From positions 1 through 33,884 of IMG/VR virus record IMGVR_UViG_3300037010_000544: a stretch of DNA of 33,884 bases; one strand, given 5' to 3'. Below the pieces are notes generated by a model. The model did not search any database. It saw nothing but the letters and a program-made list of their open reading frames with translations, and was not told the DNA's origin. Numbering within the stretch: the first letter of the stretch is position 1; each line of letters begins with the position of its first letter. Shown here piece after piece: positions 3,871-8,991 of the stretch. The DNA is from a virus. Its lineage: Duplodnaviria; Caudoviricetes. Both the position numbers and the translations under genes were made by a program.

Positions 3871-3905
3871 TAAATAAAAAGGCGGGGCGTTATGAGCGCC
3901 CCGCC
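3871..3905 (-). terminator. Rho-independent terminator (leftward)
   Basis: Minus strand GGCGGGGCG-ctcataa-CGCCCCGCC followed by TTTTTATTTA. Confidence 0.85.
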
Positions 3906-3921: not shown

Positions 3922-4281
3922 TTAGGACAGGAGTGTGAGACTGTGATTGTCCAGATCGTTCGCCGTCAACGATACGAGTTTGTGTGTATCGTCACGACGG
4001 ACAAACACTGCCTTTTCGTCGCCCGTGGCGTCTCGATTGAGACGCTCCACTACGCCTTTGAACTCAAACTTGGCACCACGCCAATGGACATAATCGCCTA
4101 TTTCCACTCCGCAGAAGTCCTCGGAGGTGATGCGTGCATATGGTTCGTCCTGTTCCGGCGCGGAATCGTCTTGTTCGTTGACCAGTGCTGACGCGGATTT
4201 TTCCGGCGCGGTTTGCCCCATGCCTGCGAGCACGGCAAAGAAGTCTACGGTGGGGTTTTCAATAACGACGGTGATCTTCAT
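3922..4281 (-). CDS. Hypothetical protein
   Basis: 119 aa, AAGGAG SD; acidic linker, then an SH3-like segment VEIGDYVHW. Confidence 0.8.
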   Translation of the reverse strand: MKITVVIENPTVDFFAVLAGMGQTAPEKSASALVNEQDDSAPEQDEPYARITSEDFCGVEIGDYVHWRGAKFEFKGVVERLNRDATGDEKAVFVRRDDTHKLVSLTANDLDNHSLTLLS

Positions 4282-4346
4282 GGTGATTCTCCTTGGTTAA
4301 GTTAAATTGTGAGTCAATACTACACGGGGCGCCTCTCGGCGTTAGC

Positions 4347-4481
4347 TCATGCGATGCAAACTACCTTCAGCCTGCCGTTAGACAGACCTAGGAAGTCTAC
4401 CGCAAGAATGAGGGCCTCGACAGAATGCGAGGCGAAAACGGTTAACTGTTCGGTTTTGTTAGACACGATGTAGGTGTGCAT
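4347..4481 (-). CDS. Small hypothetical protein (44 aa), below ORF-track cutoff
   Basis: MHTYIVSNKTEQLTVFASHSVEALILAVDFLGLSNGRLKVVCIA*; AGGAG SD 7 nt upstream. Confidence 0.65.
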   Translation of the reverse strand: MHTYIVSNKTEQLTVFASHSVEALILAVDFLGLSNGRLKVVCIA

Positions 4482-4617
4482 GGCGCTACTCCTGGTTGTT
4501 TTGTTAAACGCACGGTTCTACTTCGGCAGGTTTTGCTAGGTGCGAAGTGATCTACCTCGGTAGGTTTGTTAGCAATTATCCAAATGTTAGCCCCTAATTA
4601 GAAAATGGGGCATTTTT

Positions 4618-4630
4618 TAAGTGCTTGATT
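4618..4630 (-). promoter_or_regulatory. IHF-binding consensus site
   Basis: Minus strand AATCAAGCACTTA matches WATCAANNNNTTR exactly. Confidence 0.6.
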
Positions 4631-4892
4631 TTGCGATAATTATCCAATTATCCAATTATCTGAGTGAATGAACGCAAATTTGTGGGTAGACTTTCTACGG
4701 TGTGTTAACCTGTTAGCTCGTAGATTTTTACCGCTACACGGGGTTTTATATATATACGTATTTCTAATTGTATAAATAGGGGCTAACAAGTTCGTTCCGG
4801 CTAGTGTTTATAGGGCTTCCAGCCTGTTAACCCGTTTTCTAAAACCCCGGATAATTGGATAATTACCCGTAGATGTTAGCTCGCTCCGCTCG

Positions 4893-4905
4893 CAAGTCCT
4901 TGATT
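4893..4905 (-). promoter_or_regulatory. IHF-binding consensus site
   Basis: Minus strand AATCAAGGACTTG matches WATCAANNNNTTR exactly. Confidence 0.6.
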
Positions 4906-5025
4906 TTGCTTGAGGTAGCTAACACGCGCGAGCTAACATTTGTCCTGGTGTTAGCTCAAATTTTTGCTCGCAGGTAGCTAAAATCGCGTGGTAGCGCTTC
5001 ATCCGCTGTTAGCTCGCTACGCTCG

Positions 5026-5038
5026 CAAGTTATTGATT
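5026..5038 (-). promoter_or_regulatory. IHF-binding consensus site
   Basis: Minus strand AATCAATAACTTG matches WATCAANNNNTTR exactly. Confidence 0.6.
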
Positions 5039-5117
5039 TTCCTGCGAGTAGCTAACACAGACAAGCTAACATTTGCCGGCTATTAACCCGCTACGCTCGA
5101 TTTTTTGCTCGATGTAG

Positions 5118-5276
5118 CTAACAGAGTAGGGCTAACAGCCGACAAATGTTAGCTCGGTGGGGCTGTAATGCGCCGCCTCGGTAAGCGCCCGGCCCTCGCG
5201 CCGGATTGGCCTTTATGCAACCGCTGACGACGTAGGCGCGCCGCCGCCTATCCGCTACAAGGCGCGTTTTATGCAT
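5118..5276 (-). CDS. Possible small basic protein (52 aa)
   Basis: MHKTRLVADRRRRAYVV...; AGGAG SD with 11-nt spacer; 3' end runs into the repeat array. Confidence 0.35.
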   Translation of the reverse strand: MHKTRLVADRRRRAYVVSGCIKANPARGPGAYRGGALQPHRANICRLLALLC

Positions 5277-5307
5277 GGGTAGATTATCTCCTGTTCTGGT
5301 GCTGTTA

Positions 5308-5484
5308 TCATTGCCGGGCGCGGTAGTATGCGTCCTGGTCGGCGAGGTGCTGGACTTCGCCTGGTACTGGATAGCCGGTGGGATACCAGAGATTGCACCT
5401 TTGGCCATCAATGCTACTCTCATACGTGGCATTGATCTTGCCGCCCTCTTCATATCGTGCTGCTATGAGAATCCATGTTTCCAT
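5308..5484 (-). CDS. Small hypothetical protein (58 aa)
   Basis: METWILIAARYEEGGK...; GGGAG SD places the start at 5484. Confidence 0.65.
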   Translation of the reverse strand: METWILIAARYEEGGKINATYESSIDGQRCNLWYPTGYPVPGEVQHLADQDAYYRARQ

Positions 5485-5498
5485 GATTTTCTCCCATA

Positions 5499-5536
5499 AT
5501 AAAAACAAAAGGGACTACGGATAATCCGTAGTCCCT
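5499..5536 (-). terminator. Rho-independent terminator (leftward)
   Basis: 12-bp stem AGGGACTACGGA/TCCGTAGTCCCT followed by TTTGTTTTT on the minus strand. Confidence 0.9.
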
Positions 5537-5593
5537 AGAATCAATTAAAACAGGGCAAGAACGCATCGGCGCGCCCTTGCCCTTGTCACCCTA

Positions 5594-6172
5594 TTATGCC
5601 GCTACGCGAAGCGGCTGGAATGCGTTTATACGCATTTCCATCAGGTATTGCGACAAGGCCAGCGCTTCTTCCTCGCTGACCTCGATCAGCTCCCCCTTTA
5701 TGACCAATCCATACATCACGGGATTGGCCGTGACATATTCGCCTTCAATCGTTTCGCCTTCGATAATTTCAGGCGCGGATTCCACAACAGGCGCGGATTC
5801 CACAACAGGCGCGGATTCCACAACAGGCGCGGCGGCCTTCTTTGCCGCCCTTTGTTCCTTTTGGATGCGCCGGATTTCGGCTTGCGCCGCAAATACGGTT
5901 CCCACCATGGCTTGTGCCATGTTTTCGGCGCGGGCTTCAGTCATGGAGAGGTCCCGTTTTCCTGTATTCAGCGGAAGCTTTTTGATCTTCTCACCCAGCC
6001 AGGCCGGCGCGGCCTCAACCAATTGCGCCTTGAGGTTCACCCGTGCGCCGTCTACTACCCTCCCGTTTTTGTGGTACTGATACACCACGTATGCTACCGC
6101 TTCTTGCACTGCTTCTTGCAGGGCAATGTCAGATTTTTTGATAGCGGCAATCAACTGGTTAAACGTTTTCAT
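5594..6172 (-). CDS. Hypothetical protein, first gene of the leftward arm
   Basis: Start MKTFNQL with GAAAGGA SD; alpha-helical N-terminus, (APVVES)3 repeat, C-terminus LRVAA. Confidence 0.85.
   Translation of the reverse strand: MKTFNQLIAAIKKSDIALQEAVQEAVAYVVYQYHKNGRVVDGARVNLKAQLVEAAPAWLGEKIKKLPLNTGKRDLSMTEARAENMAQAMVGTVFAAQAEIRRIQKEQRAAKKAAAPVVESAPVVESAPVVESAPEIIEGETIEGEYVTANPVMYGLVIKGELIEVSEEEALALSQYLMEMRINAFQPLRVAA
5770..5832. repeat. 18-bp in-frame tandem repeat x3.5
   Basis: caggcgcggattccacaa x3 plus a partial copy; encodes APVVES on the minus strand. Confidence 0.95.
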
Positions 6173-6200
6173 GATTTTTCCTTTCATTGAATAAATTAAC

Positions 6201-6236
6201 TAAACAAAAAGAGGCCACGAAAAATCCGTGGCCTCT
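6201..6236 (-). terminator. Rho-independent terminator (leftward)
   Basis: Stem AGAGGCCACG/CGTGGCCTCT followed by TTTTGTTTA on the minus strand. Confidence 0.9.
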
Positions 6237-6239
6237 CAA

Positions 6240-6830
6240 AATTTTCGATAAAGAACCAATTATTCGCGGACAATTGGCGATACCGTTTAATGCGCCTTAT
6301 GCAAAGCGCATTAAAGATTCTGGTCAATTCCAGTCAGAGCCCTTTACTTACCGGTGGCGGCAACCACACACAACCCCATGCAACAAATATGCCAGACAAT
6401 ATGACGGCATGCTTAGATAACATGGGTTAATCCTTGTTCCCTCAATTTTCGCCTTGATTGTTTCGCACACCATGCAAAACTGCATGTAATGCGCCGGCAT
6501 TGGACTATCCGGAAAAACCTTTACGGCGCCTGACCTATTTACATGCCCACGGTGTGCCGTGCGATGTCAGGGACTTGCATGGTCAAATTTCACGATGGCC
6601 GGCGTCATTGCCGGTCAAACTTTTACAGGTATTTGACGACCTGCAAAACTGCGCATCCTGCTGCCTTGTCCGTTTTGTTGACCGCTAACGCACTTGCTGG
6701 TTGATAACGCCTTTGGTGTTTCAAGCGGTATCACCTGAATGCGGTTCGCTTCTGCCATGCCGCGCGGGCATGGTCTTACGTGAACCACGGAATGCAGTCT
6801 AATTGACGCGCAAATTTTGAAAGATCAGGT
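6240..6830 (-). ncRNA. Candidate large structured RNA / leader (unclassified; strand tentative)
   Basis: At least ten stems by eye, including a nested multi-stem domain 6469-6583; no ORF with SD; ends at a minus-strand terminator; G-U wobble evidence for strand is mixed. Confidence 0.5.
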
Positions 6831-6892
6831 ATTGCTACCAATGGCATGGCGTCAACCAGCCGCGCTGGGCTGTGATTTTTTATGGGTCAAAA

Positions 6893-7060
6893 GGCGTCAA
6901 CCCCAGGGTATGGGACCAACCCCGCCCCAGGGGGGGAGGCCGATTTTACCTACCTCACTCACAGCACCCCCCAAATTTCCACTCCTGTAAGCCAGTATAC
7001 ACCCATCAAACTCCCCTCCCCCGTAAAACCCCACACCTGTAACCCCCAATACATTACCCA
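6893..7060. other. C-rich strand-biased region upstream of terS, candidate packaging start / genome end
   Basis: CCCCAGGG x2, a G7 run, many C-runs; position just before the small terminase and between the divergent arms. Confidence 0.3.
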
Positions 7061-7061
7061 C

Positions 7062-7090
7062 TTGACACAAACCTCCCCGCCTGATAGCGT
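7062..7090 (+). promoter_or_regulatory. Sigma70-type promoter for the late arm
   Basis: TTGACA-17 nt-TAGCGT with extended TGn; predicted +1 falls on the ATG at 7097. Confidence 0.65.
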
Positions 7091-7096
7091 TATCCA

Positions 7097-7594
7097 ATGA
7101 CTACCCAATTACCAGCCGTAGCCGATATACCCGCGCTGTTCATTTTTGACGCAGCCGTAGGGGTATACACGCTCGACGAATTGTGCGCGAAGTACGAGTA
7201 CCCGCCTGAATACGCCGCTTACCTGGAGAAAGAACCCGCGTTCCAGAAGGCGGTGCGCGAGCAGGAAGCGGAACTGGACAAGACAGGGGTATCGTTCAAA
7301 ATACGCAGTGGCCTGGTAGCTGAAGAGGCCATGATGATTATCCGGGACAGGATAAAACGCGGTGATACCCCGACGCCTGTCGTGCTGGATGCATTCAAGA
7401 CAATGGCGAAGTTCGCGGGGCGTGAACCCGCCCCTGCAGGTCAGCAGGCAGCACCCGGTAGCGGGTTCAGCATCACGATCAATATCCCCCAGATGGGCAC
7501 TACGCCTGCGTCAACCATGACGTTGGATTCGGTTTCTACCCGCGTAGCGGACACCGCCGAGATAGAAGTTGACCCTGAGTACGAATACTACTGA
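7097..7594 (+). CDS. terS: Terminase small subunit (probable)
   Basis: 165 aa directly upstream of terL; N-terminal HTH-like segment, helical core, FSITINI beta-strand typical of TerS. Confidence 0.7.
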   Translation: MTTQLPAVADIPALFIFDAAVGVYTLDELCAKYEYPPEYAAYLEKEPAFQKAVREQEAELDKTGVSFKIRSGLVAEEAMMIIRDRIKRGDTPTPVVLDAFKTMAKFAGREPAPAGQQAAPGSGFSITINIPQMGTTPASTMTLDSVSTRVADTAEIEVDPEYEYY

Positions 7595-8991
7595 TGAGTG
7601 GACTGGAATATAACCCGACGCCGTCGGTAGTTCCTTATTTCCTGAGCGACAAGTTCGTCAATCTCATCGTGGGCCCTGTCGGTAGCTCCAAGACGACGGC
7701 CTCTTTGATGAAACTGGTGTACGAAGCACAACGCGTAGCTCCGTGCCGTGATGGGATACGCAGATCGAGAGCGGCCATTATTCGCAACACCTCGCAGATG
7801 CTGGACGATAGTACGATCCCAGACTTCGTGAAGTTGCTCGGTGAAGCGGGTGAGTACATGAAAACCGGCAAGCGTATCGTACTCAGGTTTAACGATGTGG
7901 AGCTAGAGGTTTTGTTCCGGGGGCTTGACGACCCGGCGGCGGCGAGACGGCTCCTGAGTACCCAGTTGTCGTTTGGTGTCATCGACGAGTTCAGGGAGAT
8001 TCACCCTGATATTTTCAATGCGCTGACGGGTCGCTTGGGTAGATACCCTGACAAGACGATGAACGGTGTCGGATGCTGCGACGACGCGGGGAAGCAGATA
8101 CACAAGGTGTGGGCCGCGTCTAACCCGCCGGATATGGATTCGTGGTGGGAGAAATATCTCAGCAATCCTCCGGAGAACGCAGCAGTATTTTTCCAGCCCA
8201 GCGGGTTGTCGGACGAAGCAGACTGGAAAAAGTTTTTGCCCGAGGGGTATTATGAAAACCTGATGCTTGGCAAGAGCGAGGAATGGATCGAGACCAACGT
8301 GCACGGGCGTTTCGGTAGGTCTCTGTCGGGTTTGCCCGTGTTTCGCTCGTTTGACCAGGATTACCACGTAGCCAAGGCACCCCTGAAGCCGATTATAAGC
8401 ACGAACCACCCGTTGATTATCGGGGTGGACTTCGGGTTGACCCCGGCGTGTACCATCAACCAGCAAGATGCACGGGGGCGGTTTCTAACGTATCGTTCGC
8501 TGGTGTCCGAGGGCATGGGTATTTTGAGGTTCTGCCGTGAAAAATTGAAACCCATGCTAAATAATGAGTTTCCCGGCCACCCTGTGATTGTAATCGGGGA
8601 CCCTGCGGGAGTACAGCGCGCGCAGACCGACGAGCGCAGCGCGTTTGATATCCTCAAGAGCGAGGGGTTTACCGCGATAGCGGCCAAGACGAACTCCGTT
8701 ACTGCGCGAATCGCTGCGGTGGAGAATCTTCTGTCACGCCAGATAGACGGAGAAGCTGCCTGGTTGATCGACCCAGGGGCCACTGATCTCATACGTGCGT
8801 TGCGTGGGGGGTACAGGTATCGCGCCAAGACTAATGGGGAGATAGAGGACAAGCCGGATAAAAACCAGCACAGCCATATCGCCGACGCATGTCAGTACAG
8901 CGTATTGCACATAGACTCCGTGTTCGGCGCAGCCTTGAAAGCGTCAGCTCGGCGCGAGGTAAAGCGGGCAGTGGCATTTGGATGGACTTGA
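7594..8991 (+). CDS. terL: Terminase large subunit
   Basis: Walker A GPVGSSKT, Walker B GVIDEF, coupling motif ASNPP, nuclease motifs IGVDFG and HSHIADACQY. Confidence 0.95.
   Translation: MSGLEYNPTPSVVPYFLSDKFVNLIVGPVGSSKTTASLMKLVYEAQRVAPCRDGIRRSRAAIIRNTSQMLDDSTIPDFVKLLGEAGEYMKTGKRIVLRFNDVELEVLFRGLDDPAAARRLLSTQLSFGVIDEFREIHPDIFNALTGRLGRYPDKTMNGVGCCDDAGKQIHKVWAASNPPDMDSWWEKYLSNPPENAAVFFQPSGLSDEADWKKFLPEGYYENLMLGKSEEWIETNVHGRFGRSLSGLPVFRSFDQDYHVAKAPLKPIISTNHPLIIGVDFGLTPACTINQQDARGRFLTYRSLVSEGMGILRFCREKLKPMLNNEFPGHPVIVIGDPAGVQRAQTDERSAFDILKSEGFTAIAAKTNSVTARIAAVENLLSRQIDGEAAWLIDPGATDLIRALRGGYRYRAKTNGEIEDKPDKNQHSHIADACQYSVLHIDSVFGAALKASARREVKRAVAFGWT

Follow-up and report, generated by a model that had tools for sequence, protein, structure and literature searches.

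The minus strand of the window (the whole stretch of viral DNA analysed, 33,884 nucleotides) encodes a non-coding RNA with a multi-domain fold, running from position 6835 to position 6256. Its sequence and fold are new and lie outside the catalogued RNA families. In the reading we favour, at about even confidence, the RNA would act in cis as a boxA- and Nus-assisted antitermination leader; transcription, Nus loading and read-through are inferred. A preliminary description had reported a densely paired, ORF-poor region at 6240-6830. The region was right and is confirmed here, with 15 of its stems rechecked across four sequences, and its bounds are better set at about 6835 and 6256.

The source record is 33.9 kb long and 58% complete. 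The RNA locus lies between divergent arms, at the head of the leftward (early) arm (Table 1). The rightward arm runs from 7097 and carries terL, portal/adaptor and major capsid genes; a likely sigma-70 promoter of this late arm, with a perfect -35, a 17-nt spacer and a weak -10, is found just before terS at 7062-7090. The leftward arm of the window holds mostly genes without functional assignment, and in an 80%-complete relative it runs on into helicase, DNA polymerase and exonuclease. No tRNA gene was found in the window or in this relative, and the proteins scanned from them (28 and 20, a subset of the ORFs) gave no PHROGs match to RNA polymerase. Genome records with related TerL are titled Fluviibacter (67%) and Undibacterium (58%); because they also include unrelated taxa, a betaproteobacterial host is only a guess. 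The conserved block at 6900-7000 is possibly a genome-end or packaging region.

Table 1. Features of the early arm and of the RNA, in window coordinates
Feature	Position	Strand	Basis or remark
Probable terS and terL, start of late arm	7097..8991	+	Context
Highly conserved block between the divergent arms	6900..7000		Sequence comparison; recognisable in distant relatives
Probable early-promoter -35 hexamer	6895..6900	-	Positional comparison; same place as the relatives' -35
Second TTGACG	6850..6855	-	Kept in 4/4 sequences
Structured non-coding RNA, ~560-580 nt	6256..6835	-	Covariation; 146-pair model, 23 helices
5' arm of candidate closing helix P0	6828..6835	-	Pairs with 6277-6284; 31/32 cells paired, 2 two-sided changes; tentative
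boxA-like element, directly after P0 5' arm	6816..6827	-	Consensus comparison
5' rod domain P1-P6, including side hairpin 6755-6773	6651..6811	-	Most variable, least resolved part
Pseudoknot 1: hairpin 6620-6648, loop 6631-6637 paired with 6582-6588, inserted hairpin 6596-6617	6582..6648	-	4/7 pairs covary
Pseudoknot 2: 6577-81/6542-46 crossing 6566-71/6529-34, plus hairpin 6548-6561	6529..6581	-	Covariation
Three-way-junction domain P11-P15	6450..6528	-	3 two-sided changes
Long irregular hairpin P16/P17	6375..6426	-	5 two-sided changes
Hairpin 6354-6367 and small 3-bp pseudoknot (loop 6359-6361 with 6339-6341)	6339..6367	-	Tentative
Candidate long-range pairing 6678-6683 with 6322-6327	6322..6683	-	24/24 cells Watson-Crick, 1 two-sided change; tentative
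3' hairpins 6286-6315 and 6256-6277	6256..6315	-	Cross-sequence pairing
3' arm of candidate closing helix P0	6277..6284	-	Cross-sequence pairing
Intrinsic terminator T1, 43 nt before first early start codon	6209..6237	-	Terminator scan; absent in L002
First early gene, 192 aa	5594..6172	-	Protein searches; confined to the clade
Intrinsic terminator T2	5552..5583	-	Terminator scan
Intrinsic terminator T3, directly before RBS and ATG	5510..5536	-	Terminator scan
Intrinsic terminator T4, directly before RBS and ATG heading the rest of the early arm	3881..3905	-	Terminator scan

Several further features of this genome and its relatives were recorded. The first early gene contains three perfect 18-nt tandem repeats (5770-5832) that vary among relatives. 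For its product, neither a fold match nor, among 4,894 frames, a profile match was obtained, and the atlas gave only unnamed clusters at 0.87; the structure model was of low confidence, and neither an N-like antiterminator nor kinship with the relatives' first genes found support. A second long non-coding region at 4490-5150, with direct and inverted repeats and an AT-rich patch, is probably a replication origin. Its repeat units measure 66-133 nt and vary in copy number among relatives, and a search for covariation there found none. A hairpin at ~5064-5154 reaches a folding z of -11 on the minus strand, yet is missing in two close relatives (L002 and L003). Another relative, G001, has the early arm and tail genes in common at 87-93%. 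Its head module is not the same, with a P22-like portal and a capsid of another family, and an abiF RNA match (L271:3327-3363) falls between two of the head genes.

The evidence for the fold comes from an alignment of the window with three close relatives (L001-L003); these four are the only full sequences and share 80-85% identity across the region. A hand-curated minus-strand model was paired in 99.1% of 584 cells, and 32 of its 146 pairs had changed on both sides, the covariation in homologues for which the preliminary description had called. Slid controls of the model gave 0-3 such pairs. Because the model was chosen on the same four sequences, an unguided helix scan was added. Here, a maximum of 5 Watson-Crick covarying pairs per helix was observed, with at least 2 in eight helices and at least 4 in two. 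Over 150 column shuffles the maxima were 3 pairs per helix, five helices with at least 2 and none with at least 4; the observed signal was reached in 0 of 150. Two coding controls of similar divergence gave no more than 2 covarying pairs per helix, and a second non-coding region (4281-5310) no more than 1. Note that a block-of-6 shuffle, whose maximum equalled the observed values, is not a valid null because partner blocks stay intact. As an independent check, contigs from two runs outside the model provided two further versions of helix 6566-71/6529-34, each 6/6 paired, one of them read through the aligner's indel calls (variant table). Folding better than dinucleotide shuffles, as anticipated earlier, held in direction and was modest in size (z of -2.03 on the plus and -2.46 on the minus strand, with 3/100 shuffles as good on either), and 120-nt windows across the RNA ranged from +1.4 to -4.4. 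Covariation, not folding energy, is the real evidence for the fold.

Pseudoknots 1 and 2 are well supported, with 5/6 and 2/5 pairs covarying in the two helices of the latter; two others are tentative. The small pairing of loop 6359-6361 with 6339-6341 is one of 2 among 16,836 triplet pairs with two covarying pairs, and is full in three of the four sequences. P0, of 8 bp, is a candidate end-to-end join. Chance alone should yield roughly one helix with 2 changes, so P0 and the pairing 6683-78/6327-22, with 2 and 1 changes, are both regarded as tentative. The model omits a possible loop-loop interaction, 6301-05/6263-67, in which a single pair covaries.

Much of the preliminary stem list reappeared in this fold. 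Stems 6354-6367, 6375-80/6421-26, 6389-93/6406-10 and 6548-61 were paired in every cell of the four sequences, as was the proposed pseudoknot 6529-34/6566-71, which holds in six sequence versions; 6256-77, 6286-6315, 6596-6617, 6755-73 and 6743-86 were paired in ~90-95% of cells. For 6621-48 and 6701-24 the registers tested left 3/16 and 7/24 cells unpaired, whereas neighbouring registers fit. The nested domain fared worse. Helices 6469-77/6575-83 and 6482-89/6539-46 are paired in the window, yet neither has a two-sided change, and L002 breaks both while the competing helix 6577-81/6542-46 covaries (compensated); 6491-96/6524-29 likewise shows no two-sided change. The nested domain and pseudoknot 2 use the same four short segments with swapped pairings. 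The former is probably a wrong fold, and the RNA may switch between the two.

The earlier impression that the RNA belongs to no known class agrees with an Rfam search, which returned no match at gathering score and, when relaxed to E<=10, nothing beyond weak matches around the 3' hairpin and terminator. Candidates tried and rejected were tmRNA, RNase P, group I/II introns, OLE and HEARO (no Rfam or ARAGORN match). The RNA appears confined to a narrow clade. With blastn against 50,697 phage records, no homologue of the region was found outside it. Two DNA-pattern scans of viral contigs returned 22 and 7 loci, of which only L001-L003 were real, and a scan of metagenome contigs (57/64 parts covered) returned 120, all by chance. 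Two covariance models run over 95 sources (892 kb) matched the window alone, with no homologue in the 94 other loci. Among five more clade records, the RNA was present only in the known L002 record, the others being fragments. The protein next to the RNA is represented by at least nine clusters. Near-identical DNA occurs in mat and sediment metagenome runs; no RNA run is listed among the sequencing runs that contain the region, a result with no bearing on expression. No published large pseudoknotted boxA leader of a phage was found in the literature searched (titles and abstract openings; few subscription papers). Four motifs and two sample numbers had no match in six supplementary files of PMC10690425, and a prior prediction elsewhere in that paper is possible.

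BoxA is a bacterial signal that sustains ribosomal RNA transcription. The boxA-like site of the window is promoter-proximal, on the transcribed strand and conserved in position among relatives, the promoter itself being putative. One position of the site is variable, with A, T or C across the four close relatives. Compared with the gammaproteobacterial consensus given in 10.1101/091223, there are 2 mismatches in the window and L001 and 1 in L002 and L003. The window site is one of 19 two-mismatch sites on that strand; in the loci of L002 and L003, the one-mismatch site has no equal on its strand. Against the B. subtilis consensus quoted in PMC13753749 the window site agrees at 11/12 positions, and lambda boxA is reported with C at position 9 (PMC3177189). 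A pattern covering the clade variants matched before 16S, 23S and a tRNA cluster (3/3 matches) in a genome titled Undibacterium, and at the 16S leader in one of three matches in a second genome. A genomic match identical to the L002 variant does not adjoin any stable-RNA gene. Weak when taken alone, the window site is a likely boxA through its position and the relatives' sites.

The tandem TTGACG at 6850-6855 and 6895-6900 was seen again, as was the lack of a convincing -10 box: a promoter scan found no sigma-70 site in 5400-7200, and no good -10 box accompanies 6895-6900. Were the second TTGACG to serve as the -35, transcription would begin within boxA.

Downstream of the RNA, the minus-strand terminator first proposed as its boundary was found at 6237-6209. 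Predicted hairpin-plus-U-tract terminators number four in the 6.9-kb early arm, all within 2.4 kb downstream of the RNA, and zero in the 27-kb late arm. A position ahead of a series of intrinsic terminators within one operon is shared with the processive RNA antiterminators put, EAR and conAn2. Since an RBS and ATG follow three of the four within 23-43 nt, little promoter room is left after them. L001-L003 have 4, 3 and 4 early terminators, with stems altered and pairing kept; L002 is without T1, yet retains the whole RNA. Directly after the RNA (6190-6250; L001-L003) gene cassettes are exchanged as terminator-plus-RBS modules with a shared core and different small genes, among them an extra ~120-aa gene in L001 and L003 and a different one in L002. 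Compared with the window, L002 and G001 have the loop-proximal part of T4 (3881-3905) in inverted orientation on a retained outer stem.

In distant relatives (TerL 58-67%), the same conserved block and a -35 at the place of 6900-6895 precede an untranslated leader of ~310-680 nt to the first ORF. Among 47 distinct leaders, boxA matched the exact consensus in 9 and lay within one mismatch in 20, with none antisense; the background is 0.0014 (exact) and 0.012 (one mismatch) per scan window. Note that these are not 47 independent cases, because the genomes are related. These 20 carry boxA at the same position as the window does, in shorter structured leaders unrelated to the window RNA, and profiles of five leader clusters gave nothing better than E 0.11 against it. 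The 47 leaders form 20 clusters with a modular look. Five clusters have at least three members; covariation exceeds that of shuffles in the two largest (up to 5/8 and 4/4 pairs), and the other three are too uniform or small to judge. In the same terminator scan 19/26 distant relatives showed no intrinsic terminator, many of them with boxA and a folded leader; thus, folded leaders are not tied to intrinsic terminators family-wide.

These minus-strand leaders upstream of terS (L049-L114, L256 and L257) consist of structured modules that are exchangeable and seem not to have been described before. A pair of boxA-like sites ~100 nt apart is present in many of them, and one type lacks boxA and differs from the rest in both its conserved hairpin and its first gene. 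In the leaders of L052, L054, L057, L063, L064 and L109 there is a helix with covarying flanks and an internal loop, which may resemble the 11-nt GAAA-tetraloop receptor. An Rfam search of the leaders of 18 loci found nothing on the leader strand. Its four matches were to Atu_At1, a Rhizobiales sRNA, above gathering score on the opposite (late) strand upstream of terS (L066:2607-2713, L103:2012-2118, L105:4691-4797 and L095:1537-1643).

As a cis-acting leader, the RNA would function as follows. Host RNA polymerase would start near 6865, and boxA would load NusB-NusE, upon which an rRNA-type Nus complex would form. This complex would shield 600 untranslated bases from Rho and keep the 5' end near the exit channel, allowing the domains and the end-to-end helix to fold. 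The folded RNA would remain on the elongation complex and raise read-through of the intrinsic terminators, leading to expression of early and replication genes, while polymerases stopping at T1 would release the RNA as a discrete species. Consistent with this are the covariation above shuffles, coding controls and the second non-coding region, the boxA sites on the sense strand of the relatives' leaders (20/47 within one mismatch vs. 0 antisense), the concentration of terminators in the early arm (four vs. none in the late arm, three directly before RBSs) and the absence of an RNA polymerase match among the 48 proteins scanned against PHROGs. The preliminary description had offered a novel large ncRNA or a put-like leader. 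A structured, unclassified minus-strand RNA was indeed found and both roles are viable, but a put-like element is less favoured: the boxA-like site, the pseudoknot 6631-37/6582-88, the candidate closing helix and the terminator-RBS junctions, all absent from that description, tilt the reading to a Nus-assisted leader.

Several observations weigh against an antitermination leader. The window boxA is two mismatches off the gammaproteobacterial consensus with 18 equals on its strand, the genomic match to the L002 variant lies away from stable-RNA genes, the -10 box is unconvincing and the alternative -35 would place the start inside boxA. Most distant relatives lack terminators in the scan, L002 keeps the RNA without T1, and the full sequences number only four, at 80-85% identity. 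In addition, the action described for Nus factors in the absence of N is on Rho-dependent termination and on folding (10.1101/091223).

Precedents exist for parts of such a leader. The rrn leader signal (boxA with NusA/B/E/G, SuhB and S4) and the boxA behind the early promoters of T7 resemble the phage arrangement in that a long untranslated RNA opens with a boxA-like site, close behind a promoter of host type (PMC8632103, PMC3709561). In the rrn complex, as described, a 5' element is fixed while later RNA loops out and NusA is repositioned; pairing of a 5' arm by boxA with a far 3' arm, as in the candidate P0, is the geometry that the complex is described to favour (PMC8632103). This geometry and the repositioning of NusA would suit P0 formation and weaker intrinsic termination. 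In contrast to rrn and T7, a 560-nt RNA with several pseudoknots, assignable to no known family, comes after the phage site, as do intrinsic terminators predicted to be strong. The conAn2 antiterminators, found in Gram-positive conjugative elements, are likewise large cis RNAs (~260-600 bp) of poor sequence conservation heading terminator-rich operons, and the pLS20 element has terminal inverted repeats (PMC8191782), comparable to the candidate end helix. The phage RNA differs in its pseudoknots and probably proteobacterial host, and boxA does not appear in the main text of PMC8191782. Unlike the bipartite conAn system, the phage has no ConAn1-like or other processivity-factor gene upstream, and a non-coding block and the divergent terS lie there instead. 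HK022 put and Bacillus EAR share the proposed RNA-based read-through at an operon start; put, however, is given as ~65 nt with two hairpins (PMC8632103), and the phage RNA is nine times longer, with a boxA-like site. The Rfam search matched no described antiterminator of this kind, conAn2 being compared here by its published description. The nearest analogue would be a T7/rrn boxA leader combined with an RNA on the scale of conAn2.

The main rival, a genuine possibility in which we place distinctly less than even confidence, is a stand-alone, trans-acting large RNA (a ROOL-, GOLLD- or OLE-like scaffold, cage or decoy) that would be the earliest product of infection. BoxA would then only secure transcription and folding, as for rRNA, T1 would set the 3' end, and leaky read-through would feed the genes. 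BoxA does not separate the two readings, since it is expected before any long untranslated RNA. ROOL and GOLLD are similarly phage-borne, with several multistem junctions and pseudoknots (PMC5737381, PMC12286853), and the phage RNA is of ROOL-like size. ROOL is described with ~580 nt (581 nt), three pseudoknots and six multistem junctions (PMC5737381), compared with 560-580 nt and two firm plus two tentative pseudoknots here, a comparison of size and pseudoknot number. A stand-alone role also fits the candidate end-to-end helix with 3' hairpin and terminator in three of four genomes, a structure that far exceeds put, and the persistence of folded leaders in relatives without terminators. However, the covariance models of ROOL (RF03087) and GOLLD (RF02032) gave no match, although one of the ROOL searches is weak by itself, none of its 14 control genomes having matched either. 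Moreover, the RNA differs from both in its fixed promoter-proximal position, its boxA-like site, its restriction to one narrow clade and its lack of the tRNA neighbours that ROOL and GOLLD often have. No terminator follows the RNA in L002, T2-T4 are left unexplained, and different, shorter folds occupy the slot in relatives, as a position-bound cis element predicts. By the tests run, the RNA is not ROOL, GOLLD, put or conAn. A stand-alone RNA accounts for the structural excess and closed ends as well as a leader does, and both are compatible.

It is rather improbable that the region is a chain of small independent modules for processing, stability or translation control of an early mRNA leader, with a T7-like boxA alone antiterminating. 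In its favour, the relatives' leaders look modular and strong support is confined to local helices, with 1-2 changes in each of the two long-range ones. Yet the clade preserves every domain and the domain order along 560 nt while adjoining genes are exchanged, and the ends would be tied together by P0 and by 6678/6322.

A single-stranded DNA role, raised at the outset, with the fold serving packaging, ejection or replication close to a genome end, is very improbable, even though the locus adjoins the conserved block upstream of terS and a strand-neutral wobble count is nearly balanced (29 G-U vs. 26 A-C). The pseudoknots, boxA orientation and terminator all fit a minus-strand RNA, the consensus fold reaches -174 kcal/mol on the minus vs. 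-140 kcal/mol on the plus strand, covarying helices in the unguided scan are more numerous on the minus strand, and a separate repeat-rich, origin-like region exists at 4490-5150. The minus strand is supported as the RNA strand by the consensus energy, the covarying helices and the orientation of boxA and terminator. Finally, that small proteins are encoded and the structure is incidental is largely refuted and scarcely credible: open frames of 69-77 codons exist, but they differ among the four genomes, contain indels of 1, 5 and 8 bases and substitutions at all codon positions and have no PHROG match, and neither 6187-6420 nor 6458-6688, the ORFs singled out earlier, is conserved as coding.

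Besides conAn2, put and EAR were the only RNA-based antiterminators listed by a 2021 paper (PMC8191782), and the function of large ornate phage RNAs is described as still not known (PMC12286853). The present RNA joins complexity on the scale of ROOL, a boxA-like site and its own native terminators, and therefore both questions are addressable with one construct: whether a large pseudoknotted RNA turns the host rRNA Nus complex into a device for reading through intrinsic terminators, or whether the RNA is itself the product. The 47 related leaders form a comparative series of further undescribed folds. Tentatively, and at well under even confidence, we propose that this molecule represents a new class among the large ornate phage RNAs. 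A closed, four-pseudoknot RNA would be the first to be transcribed on infection, folded via the boxA-hijacked rRNA chaperone complex and then acting on its own (as cage, scaffold or anti-defence decoy) or clamped on RNA polymerase, and the promoter-proximal slot would serve family-wide as an exchange site for undescribed RNA folds.
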